Source of the DNA: a virus
Length of the DNA: 64,000 nt
Strand: one strand, 5' to 3'
Virus record (IMG/VR): IMGVR_UViG_3300023184_000086
Span: 1 to 64,000 of that record
Shown one piece after another: positions 2,742 through 48,211 of the stretch (the first letter of the stretch is position 1; each line of letters begins with the position of its first letter). The notes beneath the pieces are model-generated. The model saw only the letters and a list, made by a program, of their open reading frames with translations. It searched no databases and was not told the DNA's origin. The position numbers were made by a program, and so were the translations under genes.

Positions 2742-2751
2742 TATATTTCTT

Positions 2752-3393
2752 TTACTTGTTAGCCAAAGGATTATCGATTGCTTTTTGGATTTTTTGATCA
2801 ATTTCTTTCTTCAAAACTTCCACATCTTTGGTAACTTCCTTCTTCAACTGCTGAGTTTCAGCGTTGATCTCTCTACGTGCTTGAGCCATTTCGGTACGTA
2901 CAGCATTGGCCTCTGCACGGGCTTTGTCCAAATCTTCTCTAACACCTTTACGCATTTCACGCATTTCACCTTCGGAATCACGCTGTGCTGCTTTAACAAA
3001 CCGTTCAACTTGCTCAGTAACTGATTCGTTTCTGCGTAGATCACTTTTTAGATCATTTTTAATATCACGTGTATATCCATTTGCCTCTGTAACTGAATCT
3101 TCGGCCTTCTTAATCTTTTGGTCAAGTATGGATATACGCTTATCGAACTCAGTCAAGTCTGGTGCTGAATATTCGGATATCTTTTTCTTCATACCCACGT
3201 AGTCTTTATAAACTTCAAAGGCTCCATACAATCCACCAAGTAATGATGATACCAATGTAAATGCTACCATTAGTTTAGCAGGAGTAAATTCATATCCACC
3301 AATGCTGATCACTGTATCCTTGCTAGCGTACTGTTTTACTGCTGCTTCTGCTTCGTCAATCTTAGCATTGACGTCTTTAATTTGTTCTGTCAT
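2752..3393 (-). CDS. Single-TM coiled-coil membrane protein
   Basis: Hydrophobic segment LMVAFTLVSSLLGGLYGAF followed by long heptad-rich region. Confidence 0.8.
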   Translation of the reverse strand: MTEQIKDVNAKIDEAEAAVKQYASKDTVISIGGYEFTPAKLMVAFTLVSSLLGGLYGAFEVYKDYVGMKKKISEYSAPDLTEFDKRISILDQKIKKAEDSVTEANGYTRDIKNDLKSDLRRNESVTEQVERFVKAAQRDSEGEMREMRKGVREDLDKARAEANAVRTEMAQARREINAETQQLKKEVTKDVEVLKKEIDQKIQKAIDNPLANK

Positions 3394-3395
3394 TT

Positions 3396-5228
3396 TTATC
3401 TCCTGTATTGTAGGTCTATCATATCTTGATGTAACCTGTCGCTGCTTAATGATCGTAACGCACGAGCGTTATCGATTGTCTTTTGATTTCCGTATATATC
3501 TTTAGGTGGATAAAATATACCATCCTTCATTATTGTTGTTGCATATACATCAAACCCTTTTGGCTGTGCGGCTATTGCTGCAATATCTACACCACCTGCT
3601 AACTCATTTGGTTCTACATTCTTTTTAACTGTTTCAGTTTTTTGTTCAGTTTGATTTGTTTCTATATTAACTTTTGTTTCTACTATTTCAGTAACTGATG
3701 CACTACGTGATATTGAACTAGTAACAGGCATTACAGGCACATCAGGCTCGAGTGATTTAGTTTCTATTTTTGTTGTTTGTACAGGTGCAGTTTCTGCAAC
3801 AGGTTGTATAGATAATATCGAACTCAATTGTTGATTATTGTATGTAGGTCCCAATTGATTTCTATTTGCAGAATTAGCCGCCGTTAAAAAAGACGAATTT
3901 GAATTAGCGGGTGCTTGATAACTAATTTGATTGGTTTGCTGTGCGGTATTAACAGTGGTTGAATTCATTGATTGAGTTGAAGCAGTCATTAAACTTTGTA
4001 ATGATGTTGTTGTAGGACCTTGCAATTGAACTGCTGAAGTACTAGTTGGCTGTGCAGGTGGGGCAGACATCTGTGCAGTAGATGCAGTTTGAACCTGTGA
4101 TGCTTGACTGCTGGCCATGCTCATAGCATTTAGATTATCCACTGTGGCCATTGCTTGTTCTTGTGCCTTGGCACTACTTGTAGCAGCAACTTGATTGGCA
4201 TTTTGTACAGCCGCTGCCTGTGTGGCTTTATCTGCCGCTTGTATTTGTCCAATTAGATTCATAATCAAACTCATGTTAGGAGCAGACTTATTTGACTGCT
4301 GTTGAGATTGCACAGCACTTGATGCTGGCGGTTGTTGAATCTGTGTTGGTTGAGATTGCTGTGTTATTGCCTGTACATCCTTTAACACTTGTGGAACATT
4401 ATCAGGGGCAGTAATAACTCCAGTTGTTGATAACTGAACACCTCCTACATTTATTATAGGGGTACCAGATGATCCAGCATCATTAGTTGTTAAACCTGCT
4501 AGAGATATTCCAGACGGAACAACCACATTGGTTGATTTAATTAAATTGTTAAACCCAGGACATGTTGGGCTAGACGCCGGATTGGCTACACATGGATCTA
4601 CTCTATAGTTTAAACTAAAACTTACATTCATAATTTCTGGACCATAGTTACCAGCCCAAAAATTATTATCTTTACCTACAAACCCAAACTGTGCTGCGCC
4701 TAATTTATTAATATTATAAGGTTTGTCAAATGTTTCAGTAAAATTAAAATCACTCCAATTATATTTCCTATTGGTGTATTGTGTATAATCGTAATTTTCA
4801 ACAACCTTGCCAGCACTATTGTATATATTAACATATGCTGCAAGGTAGTCTTGTCTGCCGTCATCCCAGCCGTTACCATTCTTAGCACGGAAGCCAAAAT
4901 TAAACCCGCTTAGTTGAACTCCTGTACCTGCTGCTGCAAGAGCATTGTTTATATTAACCACTTGATTGAGATTTACATTACCATAAGAGAAATTAATACT
5001 TCCCGATTCCGCACGTATGCTAGGATTTGGGCCGCAGTTACCTGGCTCACCAGCATGAAAACATAACTGATTAACCAAGACACCATTGACCCAATTGCCC
5101 GTCGTGGCAGTAGGACTACCGGTAAAATTTACTAGGTTACCAGTAGTTGAATCTACTTGAGCATTAGAATAGTTTGAACACAAGAGCACCAAGCAAAGCG
5201 CCAATGCCCACTTTCTGATAAGTGTCAT
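3396..5228 (-). CDS. Exported protein with beta-sandwich-like N-domain and Q/S/T/A-rich stalk
   Basis: Signal-peptide-like N-terminus, Cys pairs (DPC...PTCPG), long low-complexity region; start overlaps upstream gene by 65 nt. Confidence 0.8.
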   Translation of the reverse strand: MTLIRKWALALCLVLLCSNYSNAQVDSTTGNLVNFTGSPTATTGNWVNGVLVNQLCFHAGEPGNCGPNPSIRAESGSINFSYGNVNLNQVVNINNALAAAGTGVQLSGFNFGFRAKNGNGWDDGRQDYLAAYVNIYNSAGKVVENYDYTQYTNRKYNWSDFNFTETFDKPYNINKLGAAQFGFVGKDNNFWAGNYGPEIMNVSFSLNYRVDPCVANPASSPTCPGFNNLIKSTNVVVPSGISLAGLTTNDAGSSGTPIINVGGVQLSTTGVITAPDNVPQVLKDVQAITQQSQPTQIQQPPASSAVQSQQQSNKSAPNMSLIMNLIGQIQAADKATQAAAVQNANQVAATSSAKAQEQAMATVDNLNAMSMASSQASQVQTASTAQMSAPPAQPTSTSAVQLQGPTTTSLQSLMTASTQSMNSTTVNTAQQTNQISYQAPANSNSSFLTAANSANRNQLGPTYNNQQLSSILSIQPVAETAPVQTTKIETKSLEPDVPVMPVTSSISRSASVTEIVETKVNIETNQTEQKTETVKKNVEPNELAGGVDIAAIAAQPKGFDVYATTIMKDGIFYPPKDIYGNQKTIDNARALRSLSSDRLHQDMIDLQYRR

Positions 5229-6420
5229 CTATTTTTACCTCATCCATTTTAGGAATTTGATCTTTATTTTCATTCCACGCCGCACGGGCTGCTTCACCAA
5301 TTTTGCCATCATATGGGCAAGGTGTTCCTGCTGCCAACATAGCATCAAACACTCTACGGTCTTGGCACATGGTAGCAACTGCTGCTACTTTCATACCCAT
5401 ATCATATAATGTTTTGCTTAGTTTTAGTCGTTCGCAATTCATGTCACGTACAGTACCACCGCTACTAACACCAAATATCTGTGTTTGTACGCTGCCACTT
5501 GTACCGGTACTACATAGGTCAGCATTGCCGCCACTCATCATTGTTGGAGCAACTGCGGTTGGTGGTGGTTGAATAATACGCTGTGTAATCTCAGTGGTAT
5601 TGATGTTACGATTAGTCATATCACCTGTATTGACATTGTTGTTTTGATTAACATTGTTGTTTTTGTTTTCACTGGTACTTGTGTTAGTATTGGTATTTTT
5701 GTTGTCGCTAGTGGATGTATTATTGTTATTGTTGGTCATTGTACCAGTATTAACATTGTTGTTATTGTTGGTCATCGTGCCGCTATTAACATTATTGTTT
5801 GTATTAACATTAGTAGAAGTACTAGTATTGGCATTAACATTGTTGTTGTTATTAGTCATTGTACCGCTGTTTATGTTATTATTGGTATTGACATTAGTAG
5901 CAGTGCTAGTATTGGAATTTTGATTAATGTTGGTCATTGTACCACTATTAATGTTATTGTTTGTATTAACATTGGTATTAGCACTAGTGTTTTGATTAAT
6001 GTTGGTCATTGTACCACTATTAATGTTATTGTTTGTATTAACATTAGTGCTGCTACTAGTATTCTGATTGATGTTGGTCATTGAGCCTGTATTAACATTA
6101 TTATTGTTATAGGTCATTGTGCCGGTATTAACATTGTTGTTATTATTGGTCATTGTGCCAGTATTAACATTGTTGTTATTATTGGTCATTGTGCCAGTAT
6201 TAACATTGTTGTTATTATTGGTATTGACACTTGTACTGCCAACAGTAGTTTGATTAATATTGGTTATTGTACCACTATTAACATTGTTGGTATTGACTGT
6301 GCTAGTGCTAGTAGATGTGTTGTTAGTATCTACTAGTGTTTTGCTATCATATGTAGTTTGCGCCCAAACCATACACATAAAAAACATGGCCGCTAGCCAT
6401 GATAGAACTTTCTTGAACAT
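5164..6420 (-). CDS. Exported Asn/Thr-rich repeat protein with Cys-containing C-domain and C-terminal TM anchor
   Basis: Signal peptide ending VWA; about ten NNN(V/I)N(T/S)G(T/S)MT repeats; domain DLC..G.SG.VQTQ..G.S.G....D.NCERLKL...MCQD.RV..AM..AGTPCP; C-terminal hydrophobic tail. Confidence 0.85.
   Translation of the reverse strand: MFKKVLSWLAAMFFMCMVWAQTTYDSKTLVDTNNTSTSTSTVNTNNVNSGTITNINQTTVGSTSVNTNNNNNVNTGTMTNNNNNVNTGTMTNNNNNVNTGTMTYNNNNVNTGSMTNINQNTSSSTNVNTNNNINSGTMTNINQNTSANTNVNTNNNINSGTMTNINQNSNTSTATNVNTNNNINSGTMTNNNNNVNANTSTSTNVNTNNNVNSGTMTNNNNNVNTGTMTNNNNNTSTSDNKNTNTNTSTSENKNNNVNQNNNVNTGDMTNRNINTTEITQRIIQPPPTAVAPTMMSGGNADLCSTGTSGSVQTQIFGVSSGGTVRDMNCERLKLSKTLYDMGMKVAAVATMCQDRRVFDAMLAAGTPCPYDGKIGEAARAAWNENKDQIPKMDEVKIDDTYQKVGIGALLGALVFKLF
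5600..6290 (-). repeat. Coding tandem repeats (36-nt / 12-aa units and longer variants)
   Basis: Recurrent ggtcattgt(g/a)cc(a/g)...ttaa(c/t)(a/g)tt units on the plus strand. Confidence 0.9.
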
Positions 6421-6492
6421 TGTATATAACCCCCGTTATGATATATTTACTTAGGGGTTTGCTACAATTAACCTAGTAGATTACAAATAATA

Positions 6493-6511
6493 AACCCGCA
6501 CTAGGCGGGTT
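6493..6511 (-). terminator. Intrinsic terminator
   Basis: AACCCGC-N5-GCGGGTT hairpin followed by T-rich tract on minus strand. Confidence 0.7.
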
Positions 6512-6758
6512 CATTATTTTTTTGATATAGTCTCATAGCCTTTGCTCGGGCTAGTGCTAACCTAACTATAACATAATCGGACAATTCATCTTCATCATGA
6601 TGACATTTATCATCACATGTTATTAGAGTTGGACGACGATATGCAACATGAAAATCAACGTCGTCATATTCATCGTCGTCGTCGTCATCTATTTCGGATG
6701 GATTACTTCTTTGCAGGCTCAGCAGTTTTTGCTTCGACCTTGGCAGCAGGTGCTTCAC
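6501..6758 (-). CDS. Acidic hypothetical protein, start uncertain
   Basis: Poly-Asp stretch and helical C-terminus; only candidate start is a GTG inside the upstream gene. Confidence 0.4.
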   Translation of the reverse strand: MKHLLPRSKQKLLSLQRSNPSEIDDDDDDEYDDVDFHVAYRRPTLITCDDKCHHDEDELSDYVIVRLALARAKAMRLYQKNNEPA

Positions 6759-7161: not shown

Positions 7162-7172
7162 ATATTTCTAAA

Positions 7173-7307
7173 TTAAATATCCATTTCTTCGTAATCTGCT
7201 TTACCTACACCGCATTCCGGGCAAGCAAAATCATCATGTAACTCTTCCCATTTTCCTTCAGTTTCTTCATTGTGTACATGGCCACATACTACGCAAACGT
7301 GTTTCAT
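7173..7307 (-). CDS. Rubredoxin (44 aa)
   Basis: Below track cutoff; MKHVCVVCGHVHNEETEGKWEELHDDFACPECGVGKADYEEMDI with two CxxCG knuckles; TAATG overlap with rubrerythrin stop. Confidence 0.93.
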   Translation of the reverse strand: MKHVCVVCGHVHNEETEGKWEELHDDFACPECGVGKADYEEMDI

Positions 7308-7756
7308 TATAGTTTCTCCAATACTGCTTGATATGCTTGAGCGTGACGTTTTTCAACACTCTTCAAAGCCGCAAAACGCTTTTCTGCTTTGGCAAGAACT
7401 TGTGCAAATTGTTTTGCATGTTCTTTACTTTCGGCAATTTGTTCTTTTGCTTCTTCTTCTGCTCTCCAATTTTTTTCAACTGTAGCATCTGCTAGCATAT
7501 TTGGATACATTGTGGTAAATTCAAATGTTTCACCTTCAATGGCTTTTTCCAAACATTCCTTAGTTGATGGTTTGCCAATAAGCAATTCCAAATGACCCCA
7601 CGCATGTAATAGTTCTTGATCTGCGGTATGTTCGAAATGTTTTGCAATATCTTCATGCCCTTCTTCTCGAGCAATCTTTGCAAAGTAGCGATATTTAATA
7701 TGTGCTTGGCTTTCTCCTGCCAATGCACTTTCCAAGTTTCTAACGGTAATTGACAT
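7307..7756 (-). CDS. Rubrerythrin family di-iron protein (short form, no fused rubredoxin domain)
   Basis: NL..A.AGESQAH.KY, ExxH motifs (QELLH, ESKEH, VEKRH), GETFEFTTMYP. Confidence 0.92.
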   Translation of the reverse strand: MSITVRNLESALAGESQAHIKYRYFAKIAREEGHEDIAKHFEHTADQELLHAWGHLELLIGKPSTKECLEKAIEGETFEFTTMYPNMLADATVEKNWRAEEEAKEQIAESKEHAKQFAQVLAKAEKRFAALKSVEKRHAQAYQAVLEKL

Positions 7757-7809
7757 CTTTTCTCCTTGTGTGTGATTGTCTTACAATGTTAATTGTACAT
7801 TTATTTACT

Positions 7810-7866
7810 ATAGTAATCAACTATAAAATGATATTTTTCAATTGTAAATTCCTATTACAATAATAG
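7810..7866. promoter_or_regulatory. OxyR-like operator upstream of rubrerythrin-rubredoxin
   Basis: ATAG-N7-CTAT (7810-7824), then ATTG-N7-CTAT-N7-ATAG (7841-7866). Confidence 0.6.
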
Positions 7867-7870
7867 GCAA

Positions 7871-8214
7871 GAGAAACCCGCCGAAGCGGGTTCTGGTTGT
7901 TTCTTTTATACAGTAAGTCCTACTGCACCTTAGCCTTAAGCGGCCATGGAATATAAACTATCGTTTGCCTTTAGTTTGATTTGCTTGATTTACGGTCATC
8001 GCCTACCGAGTTGCCGTCGCTGACTATTTGCCCAATCGATTACCAGAGCAGGCCCATTATAAAACATACTACAAGGTATCCAGACTTCCAACCCCGGGTA
8101 ATCAACGTTTTACCGGTCGCCGATTTAGTAATATGCTTTATGGTGGACCTGGCCGGATTCGAACCGGCGTCTTGAACACATCCTCTTTGAAGGGATTACA
8201 ACTATTAACTTACA
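7871..8214 (-). ncRNA. ssrA: Circularly permuted (two-piece) tmRNA gene
   Basis: Order on minus strand: T-arm and acceptor 3' end GACGCCGGTTCGAATCCGGCCAGGTCCACCA (8171-8141), 85-nt spacer, 5' end GGGCCTG (8055), pk1-like region, tag frame 7968-7936 ANDSLYSMAA*, terminator. GGGCCTG/CAGGTCC gives a 7-bp stem with G3-U70. Outer 5' boundary is approximate. Confidence 0.93.
7873..7894 (-). terminator. Terminator of tmRNA gene
   Basis: AACCCGC-TTCG-GCGGGTT hairpin then TCTCTT. Confidence 0.85.
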
Positions 8215-8222
8215 GTATATAT

Positions 8223-8654
8223 TTATTTTGTAGCGTCTGCAAGTTCTTTATATCCAGCCCAACTTGGATGAATATTATCTGTTTGCACACGGGTAATTGG
8301 TAATACTATATCACCATTTTCACCAGCAACTACTTTAACAAAACTTTGTATCCAATCTATTTCTAAACTACTAGATGGATTGTTACCGTGCGGAAGTATC
8401 CAAAATACACGATCGGCTTTAACAGCCTTGCGTATCTGTTGTAGTTCTAAAATAGTTCTTACACCTGTGTGATCGTTAGAACCCAAACTGATGATTACAG
8501 TCTTGGCAACAGGCAAGGCACCTTGATCACTTTCGAGATATTTCTTACGCCATTGTTGGCTATTGATACCGCCACGAGCATAGGCCACACATTCTGGTCT
8601 ATATTTGGCTGTACCTACGGCTATGCTATCACCTAGAATTAAACAGTCCAACAT
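8223..8654 (-). CDS. SGNH/GDSL hydrolase
   Basis: ILGDSIA (block I), SLGSND (block III), DNIHP (block V). Confidence 0.88.
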   Translation of the reverse strand: MLDCLILGDSIAVGTAKYRPECVAYARGGINSQQWRKKYLESDQGALPVAKTVIISLGSNDHTGVRTILELQQIRKAVKADRVFWILPHGNNPSSSLEIDWIQSFVKVVAGENGDIVLPITRVQTDNIHPSWAGYKELADATK

Positions 8655-8656
8655 GA

Positions 8657-8761
8657 TTATTTTTTCTTCTTAGCGGCTCGTTTAGCCATAGTCTTTACAG
8701 TTTTTGGCTTAGGTGGTTTTTTACCTTTAAGGATCTGACTTACTCTACGGGGGCTTGGCAT
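8657..8761 (-). CDS. Very basic 34-aa peptide
   Basis: MPSPRRVSQILKGKKPPKPKTVKTMAKRAAKKKK with AGGAAA RBS; fills the gap between neighbours. Confidence 0.6.
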   Translation of the reverse strand: MPSPRRVSQILKGKKPPKPKTVKTMAKRAAKKKK

Positions 8762-26277: not shown

Positions 26278-26903
26278 ATTACTGTTACCCTTATATCTGA
26301 TTTGATATAATCTTGATAATCATCTGGAGGGGCATCAATGTTTAATATTGTTGCCAGTTGTTGATTAGTCTGTGGCTGCTGCCCCGGGTAGTTCAAAGTG
26401 CCTTTGACAATACCGATGTTTTGTGCTTCAATGATCTTGGCCATGACACGTAGGTTTTGATAATTTTGATAGTTTGGATAGGTAATATCAAAATGTCCGC
26501 ATTTTACCCACCACCCTAAACAAGCGTCATCGGGCCTGTGTACCAGGACCAATGGACATTCGGGCCAGGTCTTTTTTATAAACTCAATGTGTTGAGTATA
26601 ACTGAACCAATGACTTTTGATTATGCGAATGCCTTCACCGCTAAATGGGCGGTCAAATTCTAATTCGTGTTCTTCTTTACTACGTTGTCCTAGTCCTGGA
26701 TAATTCAAAAACCAATCGCCGAATTCCATACCCGGATCAAAGTATGCACCCATGTGCATGAGTTCTGTGCGACCAGTTGCATCATGAAAATAGGTGCGTT
26801 CAAGACTGTAGTCGCTGCGATCAATGCTGGAACTATAGTAGATGTTTTTAACTACGCTTGACCATTTACTTCCTGGAGCGCCGGCTACAAATATATATTT
26901 CAT
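26274..26903 (-). CDS. P-loop/sulfotransferase-like protein
   Basis: IFVAGAPGSKWS, IIKSH, LVLVHR motifs; start MKYIFV overlaps Bug stop (ATGA). Confidence 0.6.
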   Translation of the reverse strand: MKYIFVAGAPGSKWSSVVKNIYYSSSIDRSDYSLERTYFHDATGRTELMHMGAYFDPGMEFGDWFLNYPGLGQRSKEEHELEFDRPFSGEGIRIIKSHWFSYTQHIEFIKKTWPECPLVLVHRPDDACLGWWVKCGHFDITYPNYQNYQNLRVMAKIIEAQNIGIVKGTLNYPGQQPQTNQQLATILNIDAPPDDYQDYIKSDIRVTVI

Positions 26904-27856
26904 TCTGGTTTGAACTTTCTGGCAATAGGTTGCCAATCGTTTCTTAATTTTGTCATACTATTATTTAATCCCTCAGGAGTATGCTCTTTAGGAGTTATAA
27001 ACATCATATTCTCATCAAACTTTTCTTTTGCTTCTTTGCTATTGATAGCAGGAATAAAGTTTGTTCTATACCATTCCTGTATATCTTTAGGAGTTCCTTT
27101 GGGTAATATTAAATTCCAGCAACCATATATGTTTAATCCCGGTAGGTAATCTTTCATTAAAGGAACCTTTTCCAAACCGCGTAACGGAACTTCTCCGGCA
27201 ATTCCGATTAGTTTTAGTTTACCTGCTTGTAGGTGTGGATATCCTACTGCTACCGGTGTAACTCCAAATTCAACATGCCCTCCCATTACATCCATCAAAG
27301 CCTGTGCTGGGCCCTTATACATAGCAGTTTCAACTCGATCTCCACCCGGCACATTTAGTTTAGTGGTTAAGTATTCTACAGCAAGTTTATGTCCACCCCC
27401 GCCGATAGCAAAATTAATTTGTCGTTGTTTTGATCTAATTTCATTTATTAATTCTTCAGGTGTGTTTACTTTACTGTTAGGAGTGGCCCAAAATGCTAAA
27501 GGACTTTTAGCAATATTGGCTACAGGTTCGAAATCAAATATGTTAAATTTAATCATTTGTGGATACCATACTTCGGCTGTTACCCATTGACTATTACAAG
27601 CAGGTACTGATATAGTATATCCATCATTTGCCACAGTATTAAAATGGTTAGTGGCCAGATTACCATCAGCACCTGGTTTATATTCGGATACAAACTTAGC
27701 ACCTGTATTCTTTTCTATCATATCCGCTACAATACGAAAACTGATTTCGTTGCCCGCACCTGGGCCGTTTGGAAATATTACAGTAATTGGTTTGGTTGGT
27801 TGCCAAGCAAATGCTAGTGCCGGTATTAGTAATAATATGCCTAAAATCTTCTTCAT
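26900..27856 (-). CDS. Bug/TctC tripartite tricarboxylate transporter substrate-binding protein
   Basis: Signal peptide, WQPTKPITVI.P.GPG.G, KPGADG, DGYTI, YKG..QALMDVMGGHV, LPKGTP; start reassigned to MKKILG with AGGAGA RBS. Confidence 0.9.
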   Translation of the reverse strand: MKKILGILLLIPALAFAWQPTKPITVIFPNGPGAGNEISFRIVADMIEKNTGAKFVSEYKPGADGNLATNHFNTVANDGYTISVPACNSQWVTAEVWYPQMIKFNIFDFEPVANIAKSPLAFWATPNSKVNTPEELINEIRSKQRQINFAIGGGGHKLAVEYLTTKLNVPGGDRVETAMYKGPAQALMDVMGGHVEFGVTPVAVGYPHLQAGKLKLIGIAGEVPLRGLEKVPLMKDYLPGLNIYGCWNLILPKGTPKDIQEWYRTNFIPAINSKEAKEKFDENMMFITPKEHTPEGLNNSMTKLRNDWQPIARKFKPE

Positions 27857-27869
27857 GTTGTATCTCCTA

Positions 27870-27899
27870 TATAAATATTCACAACTGCAAATATTTATA
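27870..27899. promoter_or_regulatory. Face-to-face TATAAATA late-type promoters
   Basis: TATAAATA on plus (27870-27877) and on minus (27892-27899). Confidence 0.6.
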
Positions 27900-27939
27900 G
27901 CATTGCTACAAAAAAATGCTAGAATGTGAAGAAAATTAT

Positions 27940-28668
27940 ATGAACACAAAAATTTTTAACTTAATCAAAGAAAATTTACAACTTGCTTTTAATTTACCCA
28001 AATATAGTAAAATTTCTATAGATGAATCTACTCTAGTAGATCAATTGCCTTGGACGCCTGCACGTTATTCTAAATTTAAAGATGCTATAGAAGCAGAACT
28101 TAGTTTGCCCTGCGAATACAGAGGCACACTAAAAGAGATTGTTAACGATCTATCTGAACGCTATATTCTACGTTTCTTTAGTGAGATTTGGAAACCTAGA
28201 ACAGGTGATTATGAGCATACTGGTTGGGATCTTGCTGACGAGATTAACAAACTAAATCCAACTAAAGTTTTAGATGTTGGGTGCGGATATCATCCATTTA
28301 AAGGACGTATACAGAATTTGATTGGGATTGATCCGTATAACAACTGTTCTGATTACGAAGTAGATATACTAGACTATAAAGTAAAACCCAACAGTCATGA
28401 TGTTATCATAGCCCTGGGCAGCATTAATTTTAATAGTAGAGATGAAATTGAAGCACGATTTGAACACTGTGTCAATATACTGAAGGAAGGTGGGAAATTC
28501 TTTCTAAGAGCCAATCCAGGAATTCCACACAAAACTGGTCCGTATGTTGATATATTTCCTTGGACATTTGAAGTGGTTAATGATTTTGCTGAAAAATACA
28601 ATCTAAAGTTAGACACATTTAAACGTGATGCTAATGATAGATTATACTTTGTATATACTAAACTTTAA
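27940..28668 (+). CDS. Class I SAM methyltransferase with N-terminal small helical (ACP-like) domain
   Basis: VLDVGCG, IGIDP, DVIIALGSINF; start MNTKIF. Confidence 0.8.
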   Translation: MNTKIFNLIKENLQLAFNLPKYSKISIDESTLVDQLPWTPARYSKFKDAIEAELSLPCEYRGTLKEIVNDLSERYILRFFSEIWKPRTGDYEHTGWDLADEINKLNPTKVLDVGCGYHPFKGRIQNLIGIDPYNNCSDYEVDILDYKVKPNSHDVIIALGSINFNSRDEIEARFEHCVNILKEGGKFFLRANPGIPHKTGPYVDIFPWTFEVVNDFAEKYNLKLDTFKRDANDRLYFVYTKL

Positions 28669-35900: not shown

Positions 35901-37995
35901 TAGAACCATTACCACCACCCGCATTGCCATATCCTCCATACACCGTGGATGGTTGTGTTGCTGCGCCGCCGGCTGCACCTGTTCGTGCATAACTCCCACC
36001 ACCACCACCACCAGAACCACCTGCGCCGCCGGCGGCGCCTGTGCCACCACCTGGATCACCGTTGCCGCCCGCACCACCACCAAATGCTATTTTATTTGCA
36101 TAATTACCACCAAACAATGTATTGCCACCTGTGGCAGCAACTCCGCCTCCTGCGCCCACCGTTATTGTTAATAAATTAGAAATATTTGTTATAGTAAATG
36201 TACCTGTAATGAGTCCGCCAGAACCTCCGCCACCGCCGTTCACCTGACCCGCGTAGCCGCCGCCGCCTCCACCGCCAACTAATAGATAACGTATAGGAGA
36301 TGATACAATACCTGCACCTGTAACTGCACCTAATGCACCATCAACTGGTGCAAATGTTTGCAGTACCGCAGTCGTTGTAAATGTATGATAAACATAATTT
36401 GATACTGTAGAAATAGTTCCACCTGTAGCCAGTACATTGGTTCCAGAATAACGGACTATAACAACACCACTACCACCGGCACGTCCTGCGTAACTTGAAG
36501 GTCCACCATTATTACCACCACCGGCACCACCATTTCCTGTATTTGCGGTCCCATTTAAATTAGTAGTATCGGTATTTTGCCCAGTACCTCCAGCAGCATA
36601 CGAGTTACCATCTAACCATTGCAGACCAGAACCAGGTGCGCCGCCTGTGTTATTACCACCCGCACTACCTACACTACCAGCTCCACCACCACCACCGCCT
36701 ACAGCCAATGTGTAATCTGCTGGTCTATAACCGCCAGTTCCTCCAAAATTTCCTCTACTTATATCCACTGATGATACTTGGATGCTAGTTCCGGAAGTTC
36801 GATCACCGCCCCAAGAGCCGCCGCCTCCACCGCCGGAACCACCTGCTTTACCTGGTGATCCAGAACTATCATTACCAGTTCCGCTGTTTCCACCTCCACC
36901 GCCGCCATAGGCGACAATAGTTGAAGTGGTAAAATTCCACATTCCTGAATTTACAATAGATGTGTTATTTCCAGTTACACTAGTTGTTGCGCCTCCAGCA
37001 CCAATAGTAACACGAATTATATTTGTAGATGTTAATAAAACATTAGTAATAGTTCCATAGACTAATCCGCCAGCACCACCACCACCGCCAATGTGACCAG
37101 CACCAAATGAACCTATTTGACTACTTCCCCCCGCACCACCACCGCCTACTGCTATATATTCAATTTTTGGAATTACATTAGTACTAATTGCTGCAGGAGT
37201 GGTTACATTCAAGTCTTGATTGCTGAGTAAAAGACTAACATAATTAAAATATGGATCATTTAGTGGAACTAGGCTAACAACTGGGGTTGGATATCTTATA
37301 ACAATAATACCAGATCCACCAGATCCACCTGCAAACGGTCCGTTAACATTAAGATCGCTGGCACCGCCACCGCCACCGCCAAAGCCGGCAGTACCATTGC
37401 TACCCGCAGTACCTCCATTGCCGCCTGTACCGCCACCACCTAGGCCGCCGCTTCCACTTACACCATTTTTCGATCCCCCGCCACCACCACCATAATAAGT
37501 GGCAGAACCATTCAAATAATTATTAGTAATACCATCGCCGCCCGTTGGGTTACCAACAGTTCCATATGCTCCGCTAGCACCTAATCCTGTACTACCAGAT
37601 CCGCCGGTGGCGGTGGTTGCATATGAAACAGTACTTCCTACAATAGAACTTGAACCGCCGGCAGCAAGGTTACTAGCACCGCCTGCTCCAACTGTGACTA
37701 GATATTGTCCAGATAATAAGGTAGTACTAGTTGTACGAACTTGCCCTGCATCTCCACCTGCGCCATAAGATAGACCTCCATACGATGTGGTTCCACCTTG
37801 GCCGCCGCCTACTAATAATATATCAGCCTGTATCGGAGCAAATATTGTTAAAAGACTGCTGGCATATGTTGATAAAAAAGAATGTACAGTATAAGAAATA
37901 CCACCACTGGTGTAATAGGAGATAGTTCCACCTATGGCAGAATAGGTGGGATATGTATATCGTTGCCGTTTAATTACACCAAGGTCGAACGTCAT
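32920..37995 (-). CDS. Tail fibre/adhesin with Gly-rich and ConA/LamG lectin domains
   Basis: Four Y/L-L-V-GGGG...GGSG(I/V)VI(I/V)RY Gly-rich domains; three FT(I/V)E.W.Y...W.H(I/V)A...G Y...R LamG domains. Confidence 0.85.
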   Translation of the reverse strand: MTFDLGVIKRQRYTYPTYSAIGGTISYYTSGGISYTVHSFLSTYASSLLTIFAPIQADILLVGGGQGGTTSYGGLSYGAGGDAGQVRTTSTTLLSGQYLVTVGAGGASNLAAGGSSSIVGSTVSYATTATGGSGSTGLGASGAYGTVGNPTGGDGITNNYLNGSATYYGGGGGGSKNGVSGSGGLGGGGTGGNGGTAGSNGTAGFGGGGGGASDLNVNGPFAGGSGGSGIIVIRYPTPVVSLVPLNDPYFNYVSLLLSNQDLNVTTPAAISTNVIPKIEYIAVGGGGAGGSSQIGSFGAGHIGGGGGAGGLVYGTITNVLLTSTNIIRVTIGAGGATTSVTGNNTSIVNSGMWNFTTSTIVAYGGGGGGNSGTGNDSSGSPGKAGGSGGGGGGSWGGDRTSGTSIQVSSVDISRGNFGGTGGYRPADYTLAVGGGGGGAGSVGSAGGNNTGGAPGSGLQWLDGNSYAAGGTGQNTDTTNLNGTANTGNGGAGGGNNGGPSSYAGRAGGSGVVIVRYSGTNVLATGGTISTVSNYVYHTFTTTAVLQTFAPVDGALGAVTGAGIVSSPIRYLLVGGGGGGGYAGQVNGGGGGSGGLITGTFTITNISNLLTITVGAGGGVAATGGNTLFGGNYANKIAFGGGAGGNGDPGGGTGAAGGAGGSGGGGGGSYARTGAAGGAATQPSTVYGGYGNAGGGNGSNSGGGGGAGGAGGANYAAGAGLFVNTPSADYTKIYAAGGVGNYNGTAAANLGNGGGGYSSAGGSGIAILWEPVSNSIPTLLGNPVIITTSGFRVYIFNGSGGIVFNPSLSNNLVTDSSANSYIASPATQLTQGSFNPYTANWSTYFNGSSNLSIPNSASYGTTGLNLGNSNFTIEGWVYFNDISSGQLIGHGGYAWQIAFSSSGYLSFYISSNGTSYNMFNGNGFGYVTAGRWYHIALVRNGSTFTSYLNGVVGASVTSASTIYATTTALNIGISTSTYFNGYLSNIRILKGTAYYTSNFTPAIAPLSLVNNTLLLTCAGSNLIDKSSYSWKINQSGIPVVKKFSPFANVGSYNPTLVGGSAYFNGSSDWIAINSTSTINTLTPNWTYLHDGTTDYTIEGWVYPLTTSGQKTLISTSGVLSGAGISLNYYNNGSFYWEICKGDGSSYAFVSSNGSIIKPNAWSHIACTFASSNKTTNLYVNGVKVATTATTTATFTATSASYPLTIGKPAGSSSSIYFYPGYMSNLRVLKGVISDSVVTTNLSLGTTFEYLIVAGGGGNTGGGGGFRTGTVITTQSGAIYTITVGNGGASSGGNSSLVGGGINIVSAGGGGGGIAGGSGGSGAAGNTPATIPAQGYDGGGGGGGAGGVSSGLTGGPGAYSNIDGLGYYYSGGGGGAGGGGMGGDGGIGGGGYGVGFSFGSPGTGGRNAATTAGGTNTGGGGAGGSGGSGIVIIRYSGPQRAVGGDVTTNISGYTVHTFLASGTLVDNIQTYTIPTAPVVASSTTTNLLLNFTNAKIVDASLNIDMSTSGDTGLVSDVKKYNNMSMFFDGASDIISLSTNTSVSLGGGDFTVEMWMYPTTVYNTGNAPALLDARTTGNGAGLVRFGYNGTILTEGAVIGWKENTSYVVTATVTTNAWNHVAVVRRSGIMYMYVNGVVSNNTASNTTGYTSPFITVGGSYDNLCWNGYMDDLRITNGIARYTSTFTAPTYKPQLK

Positions 37996-38009: not shown

Positions 38010-38384
38010 TTATTCAGTGGTGATAGTTTGCATGTCATGAGAGACCCAAGATAAATTTGGCTCGTCCCAAGTATAATACTTACCTTCAACTACGTCTGGC
38101 ATAGCGACTGGCGCCGCCCATTGGCATGTTTCTTCATTCAATACCCAACTAACATATGGTTTAGGAGCATAAAAAGCATCTCGTTCTTTATCATATGTAT
38201 ATCCAATTCCCGCATAGTTTTTACGTAAAGGAGTTCCACCTAACTTGTGCTCACCGGCGTAGGTATTATAACTAGTTTGAACCCACATACTAGGGTCTCC
38301 CCAATATCCTGTGTTAAGCACGTCTTGTTCAATAACAATTACCTGTGTAACTATGCCGTTTTCAACTTTTGCAAAATGACTCAT
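38010..38384 (-). CDS. Small tail-fibre-associated protein
   Basis: MSHFAK...WVQTSYN...RKNYAGIGYTYD...W.AP motif commonly next to Gly-rich fibre genes. Confidence 0.75.
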   Translation of the reverse strand: MSHFAKVENGIVTQVIVIEQDVLNTGYWGDPSMWVQTSYNTYAGEHKLGGTPLRKNYAGIGYTYDKERDAFYAPKPYVSWVLNEETCQWAAPVAMPDVVEGKYYTWDEPNLSWVSHDMQTITTE

Positions 38385-38476
38385 ATTAAAATTCCTTATT
38401 ATAAAATAATGTTATAGTTATTTATAACATTGTAATTTATCCATTTGTTAATATTTAAATTCACATTTTTGAATAA

Positions 38477-41400
38477 TTAATACCACATTTGACCACCTGA
38501 TGTTACTGCTGTAACAAATTGCGAATCACTTCCAGTTACACCAACAACGAAATTTTGAACACGTACAGTAATTAATCTAGGATCATTGGCAGGTGTAATT
38601 TCCTGTATAAATTGATAATTTCCAGGTTGATCCCAACTAGCAATCAATTGCGGATCACTATTTTTCAACATCATTTCGTGATCCGTAATATAAGTTGTAA
38701 TTTGAATGTTACTAGCAAGTACAGATAACGATTGTGATTCTTTAGTTGCTGTTAACTCCTGTACATTATATACCACAGGTACCTTAGTTGTAATACTTTG
38801 ATAGTTTAATCCTTGATATGGAGTTACAATATTATCAATTTGATTCACTAATACTCGATTTGAAGTAGTTGAAGCCACTAACAATATACTACTAGCAGTA
38901 TTAACAGTATTTGATACTAATGGCATAATATTTGGATATGAATAAGTAGATGCTGTAGTATTATATACTATCAATAAAGCACCCGATGCCCCATTTCCTG
39001 TGGTGGTATCAACTGATGATACCGCTGCACCAGCGCCACCACCACCATATAATCCACCGTTGCCACCAACTCCGGGTTTACCACCACCGTTAGAGATGAA
39101 TGTTGATCCAGCAGTTCCCGGTGAATTAACAGCACCAGCACTACCACTATTGCTTAAACCGTAGATATCTACACCACCACCACCGCTAGTAGATGTGGTA
39201 ACTGATGTTCCACCACCACCACCACTACCACTCGACCCTGGATATCCACTACCCAATGACGATCCAGGTGATCCAAGGCCACCTGAACTACCAACCCAAT
39301 TCCCGCCACCGCCACCGCCACCACCGTATGGACCGCCCGGTCCTCCATTCTGTTGAGGATTTACGGGCGAGGGGTTTAATGTAAGAACATCACTTGAGAA
39401 AAATGCATGTGCTGTATAAACAGTAGTTCCAGAAGTATATGAATATACAGTTCCTCCAGTGGCTTTTTGTAGTCCTGCATAACGTATAATAACAGCACCA
39501 CTACCACCACTACCACCGGGGTTAGTTAAGTTATAGTGTGAACTACCACCGCCACCACCACCAGTATTAGCACCAGCACTACCACCTGCTACGTTTGTTT
39601 GAGCAACCAAAGTACCTGCTATTGCATTGGATCCAGCATTTATACCCTGTGTATTACCATAACCACCTCCAGTACCGGAGACGCTGCCTCCATTAAGTGG
39701 AGCACCACCACCACCTCCGCCTGCACCGCCATTACCGGCAATATTGCTGTAGCCAGCACCACCACCACCACCTGCCCAGTAATATGTAGTTCCTAATAAA
39801 GAACTTGAAAAACCATCACCACCTTTGGCACCTGTACCTACTCCACTTGTACCGACTAAAACGGCGCCGCCACCTCCACCTGGATAATAACTACCACCTG
39901 AAGCACCACCTTGATTACCTTGACCTGTTATACCTAGTCCAAAAGTTACACTGGAAGATCCAGCAACCCCGCCACCTGATCCACCAAAAGCGGCTGGACT
40001 ATTATTATTAACATATTCTGAAGCCCCACCACCACCACCGACTACAGTATTATATGCATTAAATGGATTCCATAATAATGAGGTAGGACTTCCTGCTAAC
40101 AAACCATTTGCTACTAATGCAAAACTACTGGTACTATAATCTTTAGTATATGTACTACTTGAACATGCTAATAAAATTGTATTGGTAACAGTGGTTAATG
40201 GTATAGATGATGGAGTAAAAGTTCCTGTATATAATGCAGTGCCATTAGTAACTCTAACATTTGAAATATAACCCTGTGTGCTACCTGAGGCTTGGACTCC
40301 TAACGCTCCTATATAGAAAATAGCATTGTATCCAAGAGTAGTTACATTTGATGCTGTTGTAGCAGAGGCAATACCGTTTAAATAAACTGAAATAATACCA
40401 CTTCTACGAACTAATGCCACATGATTCCAAGTTTGAATTGCAGGGACTCTATCAGTTACAACAAGATTAGCAGTAGCATTATTTAAATAAATGTTAAAAC
40501 CTGTTCCTGGGTTAACATTTATTGCAAAATACGGACTTACGCCTTGAAGTATCATAGAAGCATCACCGGTTGCAAATCTATATAGCCAACCTTCAACAGT
40601 AAAATCTCCAGCCAATAAAAATGCCGCAGAAGCCGGCGTGCTTATTGATTGTGACCCTTGAAACATAACACTATATGAAACAGTATTAGCAGTACTAATA
40701 AGCATACTATCAGTACCATTAGTACCACGTATCTGACTAACACCTGCTGGTGCTCCACTACCTCCACTACCTACTGTTATAGCATATGTACCGGGGCTTA
40801 GATATTGATTACTAGTAGTTAGACCACCCGCGCCACCGCCGCCACCCATATCGGATCCACCACCGCCGCCACCGGCTACCAGCAAAACATCTACTAATGC
40901 TCCATAATTTGCTAAAGGTGCTGAAGACGATACCGGTGTACCAAAATTTATGTAGCCTGATGCTGTAAAAATATATGTTGTATAAGTACCGGATGATACA
41001 GAAAAATTAGCATTAGTAATAACAGACGCAGAAGTTGTTATAGTTCTTAGTAAGACTACTCCAGTGCCACCATTACCTCCAAGTAGACCAGCAGCATTAC
41101 CGCCACCACCGCCGCCGCCACCGGTATAGTTAATTCCACTAGTTCCACTACCCCCGGCGGCACCGGCACCGCCAGCACCTCCACCACCAACACCACCGAT
41201 AGCAGGAGTAGCACCTTGACTAGTACCACCGCCACCACCACCGCCAGCAAAGTATACAGCATTAGTAGCAGTTACATATTGTCCTATACCCAATGATATC
41301 GCAGTAGTTGTACTAATTAAAGTTGTAAAAGTTCCAGTACCACCTTTACCAGATACTGAGCCGGTTCCCGCTATACCAGCAGCACCGGCACCACCACCAC

Positions 41401-46078: not shown

Positions 46079-48211
46079 TTATATTGTTATTGTGGTTGTA
46101 ATATTGCTATAACCATTAGTGATCACAGTTCCATATGCTACTGTACTAGTCGAATTACTAGTAACTACAGTTAGCGAATTAAAATAGTTTGTACTTCCAC
46201 TACTTGTTGTTAATTTTAGAGAATTTCCTACTACAGACAGATTAATAGTTGCAGTCATTCTGCTACCGGTTAAATCGTATGCATCAACTAAGAAAGATGT
46301 AGGAATTGCGGTACCAGCATAATTGTATGAACTTGCTGTTGATACTACAGAAACAGTTGCCGGTACCCCGGACAATAGATGCAATCTACCATAACCTGTA
46401 AATCCAGCATCGTGTGCCCATACTCTACCTAAATTATCTCTACCTACAGCATTGTATTGATATGGGAATGTTGCTGTATTAGTCCAACCAGTGGATGTAT
46501 TAAAAGTATATATATATGTTGCGCTATGACAAATTACTGATAATAATGTACGATCATCAGTTAGCCAACATATATTTTTAGGTGTCTGAGGAATAATAAG
46601 ATTGCTATGGAAAAATAATTGTCTATAACTGGACGTATTAATAGTATACGTCATAAACGTTCTTTGTTTTTCGTTTGAATCAGCAACACCACCAGCACCA
46701 TGCAATTGCATAAATGTTAGATATCTTTTATTATCACTACCTACGAATGTTTCATTATACCAAGCACGTTGCATTCCATATTGAGTATCAACTGATGTAG
46801 CACTATAGGTATCATGTAACCAATAAGTTGCAAGATTTGTAGTAGTATTTGTTGCAGTATAATACATTCCTATGTCTGTATAACGTGCAATAAAATCTCT
46901 AGTTTTATCCCAATTAAAATACATAGGGTGATATCTACCAGCCGCATCAACGTATGGAACATAGAATCCCACTGAATTGGTAACTGTGGTACTGATAGTA
47001 TCTGTAAATAGTTTACTGGCAAACTTCGGAATATACCCACCATAGTTTGTTGTTCTATCACCTGTTATAATTGTACTTGTAGTAAATGACAATACTGTAG
47101 TACCAGTGATTATTCCAGTTCCGGACAATGTTTGTCCCACAGCAATTAATCCAGAGGAAGTACTAGTAACGGTAAGAAAGTTACCATTAATAAAACCAGT
47201 CACACTGGCTGCACCTACACCTGTACCGGTAATTGTTGTGCTAGCCACAGATCCTTGGTATCTACTAACTACATAAGTACCAATACCACCTGTACCTGAC
47301 GGATATGGTTGAGTAGTATAACTGTTTAATGTTGAGTATGTATTATTACTGTCATTATATTTGTAAAAGTAATGATAGTAATCATACTGTACAGAAGTAT
47401 TCAATTGTAGGGTAAAGTTATCTAATACACTGGGCCCCATGAATTGCCCAGTATAATTTCTATTAACACCTACTGCTTGTCTTGAATAACTAGCGGCAAA
47501 AATAGGAGTTGTTGCGGCACCGAGAATGGCAGTCGGAGTCCAAGCATAGTTAGAAGTATATTGGTTATTGTCACCCCAGTAGTCATGTGCAATCCATACT
47601 AGGTTATTAGTTGCCGGATTTCTATATATAGGATATCCGCCGCACCCAGTACCACCTGCAACGGTTGATCCAAAATTACCACCACTACTGGCAATCCAAG
47701 TTAGATATCCAGAATTTGCTAGATCAGATGGGGTAGTATTTAATTTTGCCCAAGTTACTGGGTAGCAATTGTTATATATAGTTTGAGTACCTGGAGTTGG
47801 ATCTATGTAATTATAATTTGCCACTACAAGATTGTTAGTACCATCTGTGAAATACTTCATCGGTGTTGGTTTATAATTTGTATCCATAGATACAAATGGT
47901 GCAAAATCTAAATTGTTTTGATGGTTATTAACTGTATTGAATAAAGAGTGACGTACATGAGTTGTTTCACCTGCAAGCATTAATATCCCACTCATTCTAT
48001 AAGAAGTTATTAGGGGATTAGAATAGCCAAAACCATTACTGGTACTTATAGTACCATTAGTAGAAAGAACAAGTCCTCCATTAAATATAGGATTCAATGT
48101 AGTTTTACTATATTGATCATGCTGTATATATATGTAATCCGATCCAGGCTGCGGATCTTCAAACATAGATGCTACATTTACTGGATTCCTAATAGTTTTA
48201 ATTATAGCCAT
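46079..48211 (-). CDS. Beta-rich virion protein, paralogue 2
   Basis: As paralogue 1; TAAATA motif upstream. Confidence 0.8.
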   Translation of the reverse strand: MAIIKTIRNPVNVASMFEDPQPGSDYIYIQHDQYSKTTLNPIFNGGLVLSTNGTISTSNGFGYSNPLITSYRMSGILMLAGETTHVRHSLFNTVNNHQNNLDFAPFVSMDTNYKPTPMKYFTDGTNNLVVANYNYIDPTPGTQTIYNNCYPVTWAKLNTTPSDLANSGYLTWIASSGGNFGSTVAGGTGCGGYPIYRNPATNNLVWIAHDYWGDNNQYTSNYAWTPTAILGAATTPIFAASYSRQAVGVNRNYTGQFMGPSVLDNFTLQLNTSVQYDYYHYFYKYNDSNNTYSTLNSYTTQPYPSGTGGIGTYVVSRYQGSVASTTITGTGVGAASVTGFINGNFLTVTSTSSGLIAVGQTLSGTGIITGTTVLSFTTSTIITGDRTTNYGGYIPKFASKLFTDTISTTVTNSVGFYVPYVDAAGRYHPMYFNWDKTRDFIARYTDIGMYYTATNTTTNLATYWLHDTYSATSVDTQYGMQRAWYNETFVGSDNKRYLTFMQLHGAGGVADSNEKQRTFMTYTINTSSYRQLFFHSNLIIPQTPKNICWLTDDRTLLSVICHSATYIYTFNTSTGWTNTATFPYQYNAVGRDNLGRVWAHDAGFTGYGRLHLLSGVPATVSVVSTASSYNYAGTAIPTSFLVDAYDLTGSRMTATINLSVVGNSLKLTTSSGSTNYFNSLTVVTSNSTSTVAYGTVITNGYSNITTTITI

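Follow-up and report, generated by a model that had tools for sequence, protein, structure and literature searches.

A circularly permuted, beta-type tmRNA gene in an uncultured T4-like giant myophage of lakes

The stretch of viral DNA analyzed here, referred to as the window, comprises the first 64 kb (64,000 nucleotides) of the 77,234-bp IMG/VR record IMGVR_UViG_3300023184_000086, which is estimated to be 22% complete. Its minus strand carries, from position 8255 to position 7870, an intact circularly permuted (two-piece) gene for transfer-messenger RNA (tmRNA; gene ssrA) of the beta subtype. tmRNA releases stalled ribosomes and tags unfinished proteins for destruction. The genes on either side are phage genes, among them those for a virion protein, tail fibers, and ribonucleotide reductase (RNR), and the carrier is an uncultured T4-like giant myophage of lakes. 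The order of the parts on the minus strand is permuted: the CCA end at 8141 comes first, followed by the 5′ strand of the acceptor stem from 8055 and then by the tag frame at 7968-7936.

The gene matched the Rfam beta_tmRNA model (RF01850) at 8255-7870 with 127.1 bits (gathering score, 84; E value, 2e-38) over the complete model, positions 1 to 331. The general model for permuted tmRNA (RF04321, tmRNA_permuted) was likewise covered in its entirety, at 8203-7936, with 118.3 bits compared to a gathering score of 47. The alpha permuted model and the cyano model gave 31.4 bits (threshold, 50) and 29.6 bits (threshold, 70), respectively. Since both of these fall under their thresholds and the beta model lies far above its own, the gene clearly belongs to the beta subtype. 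With its default settings, ARAGORN reported no tmRNA in the window, whereas ARAGORN -ps with the threshold lowered by 5% called a permuted tmRNA at 7845-8233 whose tag, ANDSLYSMAA, is identical. This means that the default miss was a threshold effect and no sign of a defect in the gene. The initial annotation, made from the sequence alone, had proposed that the phage encodes a circularly permuted tmRNA carrying a tag frame of its own, which the two Rfam matches bear out, and the T-arm, acceptor strands, helix 2a (P2a), tag, hairpin, and TAAATA motif that it had placed are each present at those positions.

The first ~45 nt of the RF01850 match form a promoter-like leader that is included in the Rfam model. 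The structured part of the acceptor piece, delimited by the covariance-model alignment and by covariation counts, extends from 8203 to 8141. It consists of the outer 5′ strand of helix P2 (AGUUG, 8203-8199), the 5′ strand of P2a (UGUUCAA, 8178-8172), the T-arm (GCCGG/UUCGAAU/CCGGC, 8168-8152), and the 3′ strand of the acceptor stem (CAGGUCC, 8151-8145), followed by the discriminator A and the encoded CCA (8144-8141). An intervening spacer of 85 nt (8140-8056), predicted to be excised, separates it from the coding piece (8055-7870), which was delimited in the same way. The coding piece begins with the acceptor 5′ strand GGGCCUG (8055-8049), the partner of CAGGUCC, and continues through a D-loop-like CUCUGGUAAUCGA to the P2a 3′ strand UUGGGCA (8035-8029), the outer P2 3′ strand GGCAACU (8015-8009), and a hairpin, CGGU/ACCG (8008-7993), in the region expected for pseudoknot 1 (PK1). 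The tag frame (7968-7936) is preceded by CUAAAG, opens with the resume codon GCA (7968-7966), and closes with the stop codon UAA (7938-7936); a hairpin lies just past this stop (7926-7910). A terminal GC-rich, terminator-like hairpin of 8 bp with a UUCG loop (7893-7874), followed by UUUCUCUU, closes the coding piece at its 3′ end. This last hairpin is included in the RF01850 model and 5 of its 7 pairs show compensatory changes, and in relatives position 7872 is fused directly to other genes, which also bears on where the coding piece ends. The features that resemble tRNA-Ala are complete, namely, a 7-bp acceptor stem, the G3·U70 pair, the discriminator A, the CCA, and the T-loop UUCGAAU.

The exact 25-nt T-arm/acceptor segment was found in 17 other IMG/VR contigs. 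An Rfam tmRNA match was present in 16 of these, and in the 17th the segment lies at the contig end, where the tmRNA is cut off. Altogether, the gene is present in no fewer than 19 related viral contigs, which come from many studies of lakes. When the model-derived helices were projected onto an alignment of 10 distinct homolog sequences, 89.2% of the helix cells were paired and 12 pairs had changed on both sides. None of 500 shuffles reached the observed values, and controls in which the partner strand was slid gave 27 to 50% pairing. These counts demonstrate both the fold and its conservation. A good example is P2a (UGUUCAA/UUGGGCA), which is paired in all 10 copies (100%), with four combinations at the two outer pairs and two covarying pairs, in agreement with the earlier assignment of TTGGGCA/TGTTCAA to this helix. 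The outer P2 helix also has two covarying pairs at a fixed offset (AGUUG/CAACU, UGUUG/CAACA, and GACUGU/ACAGUC), and the 7926-7910 hairpin and the terminal hairpin likewise covary. The CGGU/ACCG hairpin is present in 7 of the 9 homologs with letters at that place. A second scan added two copies, L034 and L035, in which the acceptor stem reads GGGGGUG/CACCUCC, a compensatory double swap at pairs 4 and 5 that keeps G3·U70. The pairing of the acceptor strands with a G3·U70 determinant, as originally proposed, is thus confirmed for GGGCCUG/CAGGUCC and retained in these copies.

One proposed helix did not hold. GTTGT (8202-8198) and ACAAC (7900-7896) had been suggested to join the two pieces at the permutation point, and both segments are present. 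However, among the 10 homologs their pairing showed no compensatory change, only 70.5% of the cells were paired, and 351 of 500 shuffles did equally well; this pairing therefore lacks covariation support. The GTTGT strand is already engaged in outer P2, where its partner is CAACU (8013-8009).

The tag frame reads GCA AAC GAT AGT TTA TAT TCC ATG GCC GCT TAA, i.e., ANDSLYSMAA followed by a stop. The tags among the 10 homologs were ANDSLYSMAA, ANDELYSMAA, ANDELYSLAA, ANDESYRIAA, AANDAVWALAA, ANDEAFLMAA, ANAANDEVFALAA, and ATAITNEAYALAA, and ANDESYRIAA was found twice, from differing nucleotide sequences. The pattern A-N-D-x-x-(Y/F/W)-x-(M/L/I)-A-A is preserved via synonymous codons, and any of TAA, TAG, and TGA serves as the stop. 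Synonymous codon variation together with varying stops demonstrates selection at the level of the tag peptide, and the frame is very probably translated, judging from this pattern of substitution. The YSMAA ending had been regarded as nonconsensus. This view cannot be upheld, since AUG GCC GCx UAA is the beta_tmRNA consensus and the relatives vary among M, L, and I at that place.

The spacer is unusually long and hypervariable. It measures 85 nt here and 59 to 92 nt in the 10 aligned homologs, compared to ~29 nt in the Rfam consensus. It is closed by a 13-bp leader-trailer stem (8140-8128 with 8072-8060) that begins directly after the CCA and stops 4 nt (UAAU) before G1, and the whole spacer folds with a minimum free energy (MFE) of −22.6 kcal/mol (z score, −2.2). 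An outer stem of 7 to 13 bp was present in the MFE folds of all 10 distinct homologs, with differing stem sequences, and in 7 of the 10 it runs from directly after the CCA to 4 nt (UAAU or UGAU) before G1. An extreme example of shortening was found in L034 and L035, where a minimal 24-nt spacer consists of a 7-bp hairpin plus AGGU. These two copies encode ACCU instead of ACCA, so that the terminal A would have to be supplied posttranscriptionally. In other respects, L035 is closely related to this phage and has the tag ANDSLYSIAA and the same downstream flank. Hence, the inside of the spacer is a hot spot for insertions and deletions, whereas its closing stem is retained.

Nothing recognizable was nested in the spacer. 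Scanned alone against Rfam, the window spacer belonged to no family and gave only chance-level matches at E values of ~8. ARAGORN (-ps80) found no tRNA in any of 13 spacers, and no glutamine riboswitch was detected. Beyond tmRNA, no Rfam family reached its gathering score anywhere in the window, and none reached an E value of ≤1 in 7600-8500; a spacer-nested tRNA and a riboswitch of the kind carried by the OM43 phage Melnitz were therefore rejected. The spacer was also rejected as a repeat or mobile element, there being no other copy of it in the window, in the fetched loci, or in IMG/VR. In the homolog L017 (5542-5927, minus strand), the 90-nt spacer holds a T-arm-like GCGGG-UUUGAGU-CCCGA in which ARAGORN at an 80% threshold found no tRNA; this motif may be a degraded remnant or due to chance.

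Long spacers of this kind are also found in cultured phages. No GenBank phage matched the gene by megablast or by blastn at default stringency, and at an E value of ≤10 there were only weak matches, confined to the acceptor piece, at ~77% identity. The matching loci hold permuted tmRNAs in Pseudomonas phage SM1 (SM1/PaMx31; L026, 546-937), Stenotrophomonas phage vB_Sm_QDWS359 (L028, 569-870), and Xanthomonas phage BUDD (L027, 533-906). On RF01850, SM1 scored 111 bits, and each of the three exceeded the RF04321 threshold (78 to 119 bits). The tags are ANDTSFDVRLAA and ANDSVYAQAIAA and, in BUDD, a probable AANDADYSVARYA. Like the gene described here, the three copies have long stem-closed spacers (110 to 127 nt) that end in UGAU before G1, and SM1 and QDWS359 have AND-type tags; unlike it, they belong to other phage groups with gammaproteobacterial hosts. 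In GenBank, these genes are either unannotated or overlaid by coding sequences (CDSs) labeled “hypothetical protein.” With cultured cousins hidden in this way and the present lineage lying just under the ARAGORN default, beta-type phage tmRNAs are undercounted. The phage beta copies also have in common a long spacer and a covarying leader-trailer stem that closes it, which provides a concrete hypothesis for processing.

Upstream of the gene, a candidate sigma70-like promoter (8242-8214, minus strand) consists of a −35 element, TTGCAG (8242-8237), a 17-nt spacer, and a −10 element, TATACT (8219-8214). The homologs L015 and L017 have TTGACA-17-TATACT at the same place. The candidate aligns with the TTGA..TAuAAU leader of the Rfam beta consensus and overlaps the stop codon of the upstream open reading frame (ORF), and transcription is predicted to start near 8207. 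Late expression from a TAAATA motif had been proposed but is not supported. Only AATAAATA/TAAATA occurs upstream (8227-8220); the hexamer TAAATA (8225-8220) shares bases with the stop codon of the preceding ORF and falls one base short of the T4 late box. No exact TATAAATA late box was found near the gene, and the window holds 9 of them compared to 13.6 expected, i.e., no enrichment. A T4 late promoter was therefore rejected. Given the conserved sigma70-like signal and the missing late box, early or middle expression of the host sigma70 type would be a better guess than late expression.

RNA libraries were also consulted. Parts of the region are contained as contigs in three RNA-library runs. 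The coverage in two of them, X19 and X20, tracks the genes that a variant genome contains and may come from carried-over DNA, and in X18 the depth over the gene is below 4.

It is highly probable that the gene is a functional permuted beta-type ssrA and an independent transcription unit of this T4-like giant lake myophage. Its position is constant while both flanking genes vary among relatives, and a place kept while both flanks come and go fits an autonomous unit. The most likely role, as far as it can be read from the sequence, would be ordinary trans-translation during infection with host SmpB, alanyl-tRNA synthetase (AlaRS), and RNase P. Host RNA polymerase would make a precursor of ~340 nt from the sigma70-like promoter to the hairpin at 7893-7874. 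As the precursor folds, the acceptor 3′ strand (8151-8145) would pair with the downstream 5′ strand (8055-8049), and the leader-trailer stem would keep the 85-nt spacer as a stem-closed loop. RNase P would then cleave 5′ of G8055 and 3′ trimming would halt at the encoded CCA (8141), so that the spacer is discarded after its stem has presumably aided the folding and processing of the precursor. The resulting acceptor piece (~65 nt) and coding piece (~185 nt) would be held together by the acceptor stem and the P2 helices. Host AlaRS would charge the RNA via G3·U70, and host SmpB and EF-Tu would bring it to ribosomes stalled on broken mRNAs. Translation would resume at GCA (7968) and append (A)ANDSLYSMAA, and the product would go to Clp-type proteases. 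The phage may benefit in that ribosomes are kept free and amino acids are recycled while truncated host mRNAs flood the infected cell.

Several observations weigh against this interpretation. Pairing is poor in the middle of P2 (AAGA with UC-A), and inspection by eye across the variants revealed no convincing pairing for the second stem of PK1, which Rfam does not model. The −35 element of this copy matches at only 3 of 6 positions, and for this reason the promoter scanner did not list the site. The RNA-library data for the region are contigs, which cannot show ends, strand, or level. Finally, no SmpB gene was found in the 77-kb record or in five related records, one of which is 229,851 bp long, extending the earlier remark that the window lacks smpB; function would therefore rely on host SmpB, AlaRS, and RNase P.

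The lack of a phage SmpB would also suit a different kind of RNA, one that titrates host SmpB or occupies stalled ribosomes and thereby shuts down host trans-translation. There is a precedent in mycobacteriophage DS6A, for whose RNA, consisting of the tRNA-like domain only, such a role has been proposed (PMC4131195). However, the gene here has a complete coding piece with resume context, tag frame, and stop, and the peptide is under purifying selection across relatives, which a pure decoy does not need. Such a role is very unlikely. Still less probable, to the point of being hard to credit, is a passive relic with no role in infection, either a captured copy of a host ssrA gene or the remnant of an attachment site. 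This idea derives from the fact that tmRNA genes are common integration sites and that fragments of them are known in prophages (PMC9004378). The present gene is complete rather than a mere 3′ fragment, and it has been kept with compensatory changes in the at least 19 viral contigs described above. A search of 185,579 species genomes for the exact acceptor 25-mer found it in unrelated tRNA genes only and not in any bacterial tmRNA. Five bacterial contigs with matches were considered as possible misbinned jumbo phages in metagenome-assembled genomes of the candidate phyla radiation, and this was rejected because Rfam identified the matches as ordinary tRNA genes, one of them beside an rRNA operon. 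An attachment-site remnant is further ruled against by the lack of an integrase, none having been found in this record.

A more serious alternative shifts the emphasis from ribosome rescue to directed proteolysis as the main role. Phage ClpX with host ClpP would read the tmRNA tag and phage ClpS would shift the traffic of ClpA, with the host proteome remodeled and amino acids recycled. In its favor, two related records, G003 and G004, encode full-length ClpX (495 and 486 bits on TIGR00382, respectively; cutoff, 371). Both proteins have the zinc finger, AAA_2, and D2-small domains, and their genes share the strand of the tmRNA and lie 4.7 kb downstream of it (in G004 at 38172-39353, corresponding to L044 14173-15354). 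Both also encode ClpS (90 to 96 bits) 14 to 17 kb downstream of the tmRNA; in G004, ClpS lies at 47014-47247 (L045 4014-4247; 96 bits). G004 is syntenic with the window and 95 to 98% identical to it (98% to 17365-7869 and 94.6% to 2741-1), and the contig end of the window corresponds to G004 position 36,962, ~1.2 kb before the G004 ClpX. From this alignment, the present phage probably has ClpX just past the end of its assembly. ClpX is also encoded by other giant phages in GenBank (Atu_ph07, Phosso, Bacillus phage G, Lak phages, and LR756511), of which phage G, Lak-A2, and LR756511 are listed in the literature as tmRNA carriers. The earlier suggestion that the phage retunes proteolysis thus gains indirect support from ClpX and ClpS lying close to the tmRNA in a near-identical relative.

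On the other hand, neither ClpX nor ClpS was observed in this record, and both are absent from the 230-kb relative G001, in which the tmRNA lies mid-contig; this argues against a close functional coupling. Neither G003 nor G004 yielded a ClpP. Moreover, rescue and tagging are two sides of one reaction, so that directed proteolysis elaborates trans-translation rather than excluding it, and as the main role it seems unlikely. We are similarly doubtful of the fullest version, in which the phage would write the AND..Y.MAA tag, read it with its own ClpX, and redirect host ClpA through ClpS, the long stem-closed hypervariable spacer serving as a phage-specific maturation device. If this were true, the spacer device, which is common to the SM1, QDWS359, and BUDD copies, would make precursor processing robust in infected cells.

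The gene is an ordinary addition to a documented class that includes the two-piece tmRNAs of phages (PMC9004378) and the tmRNAs of huge phages (PMC7162821). The novelty implied when only bacterial lineages were listed as carriers of permuted tmRNA does not stand, because phage two-piece tmRNAs had already been published (PMC9004378). The record of phage tmRNAs goes back to the Bxz1-type mycobacteriophages (PMC4131195). The genomes of huge phages encode tmRNAs and in some cases SmpB as well (Al-Shayeb et al. 2020, PMC7162821), 53 two-piece forms were reported among 402 tmRNA-bearing phages, mostly aquatic (Buchholz et al. 2022, PMC9004378), and a 2025 tmRNA database holds 79 phage sequences (PMC11915505). 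The beta two-piece lineage was defined by Sharkady and Williams in 2004, as cited in PMC9004378, and it is rare in bacteria, with 594 instances compared to 21,950 of the alpha form in Pseudomonadota (PMC11915505). Like bacterial beta tmRNA (RF01850), the phage gene has the order acceptor piece, spacer, coding piece, with the same helices, the UAAAx-GCx resume context, an AND...MAA-type tag, and a terminal hairpin. It differs in being phage borne, in having an 85-nt spacer with a long leader-trailer stem compared to ~29 nt in the model, and in that the CCA is fully encoded.

Among other phages, a parallel is found in Melnitz, a T4-like aquatic myophage that, like the pelagimyophages, has an alpha-type two-piece tmRNA (Buchholz et al. 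2022, PMC9004378). As here, its ssrA is complete, no smpB was reported alongside, and an early-type promoter was proposed (PMC9004378). Unlike the present gene, it is of the alpha subtype and has a glutamine riboswitch in its 3′ domain. The Bxz1-group mycobacteriophages, Bacillus phage G, and DS6A also have a phage-borne ssrA without a phage smpB (PMC4131195), but that of the Bxz1 group and phage G is standard one-piece and unpermuted, and the DS6A RNA has no tag frame (PMC4131195). By virion protein, the nearest cultured phages are the cyanomyophages S-CAM1, S-CAM3, and AG-345-P14, at ~50% identity over the full length. S-CAM1 and S-CAM3 (Kyanoviridae) have a permuted tmRNA too, but it is of the cyano subtype (127 to 128 bits on RF01851), has a spacer of a few nucleotides, and lies inside a tRNA cluster. 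In contrast, no tRNA genes were found in the 77-kb record (G000) or in the 230-kb G001, both tmRNA carriers. With this case, the cyano, alpha, and beta subtypes of permuted tmRNA have all been recorded in T4-like myophages. The practical value of the present case lies in the annotation of phage tmRNAs, and its interest is modest, residing in the leader-trailer stem around a hypervariable spacer, in an underannotated lineage, and in the probable phage ClpX nearby.

The subtype does not reveal the host. Pseudomonas, Stenotrophomonas, and Xanthomonas use one-piece tmRNA, and their phages SM1, QDWS359, and BUDD carry the beta type. The subtype is therefore an unreliable host marker and cannot name the host of this phage, and a literature search on the host gave nothing decisive. 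A Porin_4 homolog (Pfam, 77 bits) encoded on the minus strand at 1782-2669, 87% conserved in G004, implies a Gram-negative (diderm) host.

The record encodes the virion structural protein phrog_5838 (872 bits), tail fiber and baseplate proteins, both RNR subunits, and a nuclease, and near-identical DNA recurs across lake and freshwater metagenomes of several studies.

The surroundings of the tmRNA gene differ among close relatives. Just upstream, a 143-aa ORF (8223-8654, minus strand) has a subthreshold GDSL-lipase-like match (27.7 bits; cutoff, 32.9), and some variant contigs in the read data bypass this ORF through a joint from 8206 to 8714. Downstream, rubrerythrin (7756-7307; Pfam, 52 bits) and a 44-aa rubredoxin (7307-7173; 32 bits) form a cassette at 7163-7868 with its own promoter-like site. 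The cassette is an insertion, as the 98%-identical G004 and variant contigs from two runs fuse 7164 to 7872. A 3.8-kb block at 2742-6533, containing a 610-aa ORF and a 418-aa ORF with no Pfam match, is missing in G004, which has 57 bp instead; it represents a second insertion on the downstream side of the tmRNA that is specific to the lineage. Farther away, the window encodes a periplasmic binding protein of the TctC/Bug family (26900-27949, minus strand; Pfam, 89 bits). Its nearest ESM-Atlas clusters are ~90 to 100% viral, which makes this a recurrent cargo gene of phages.

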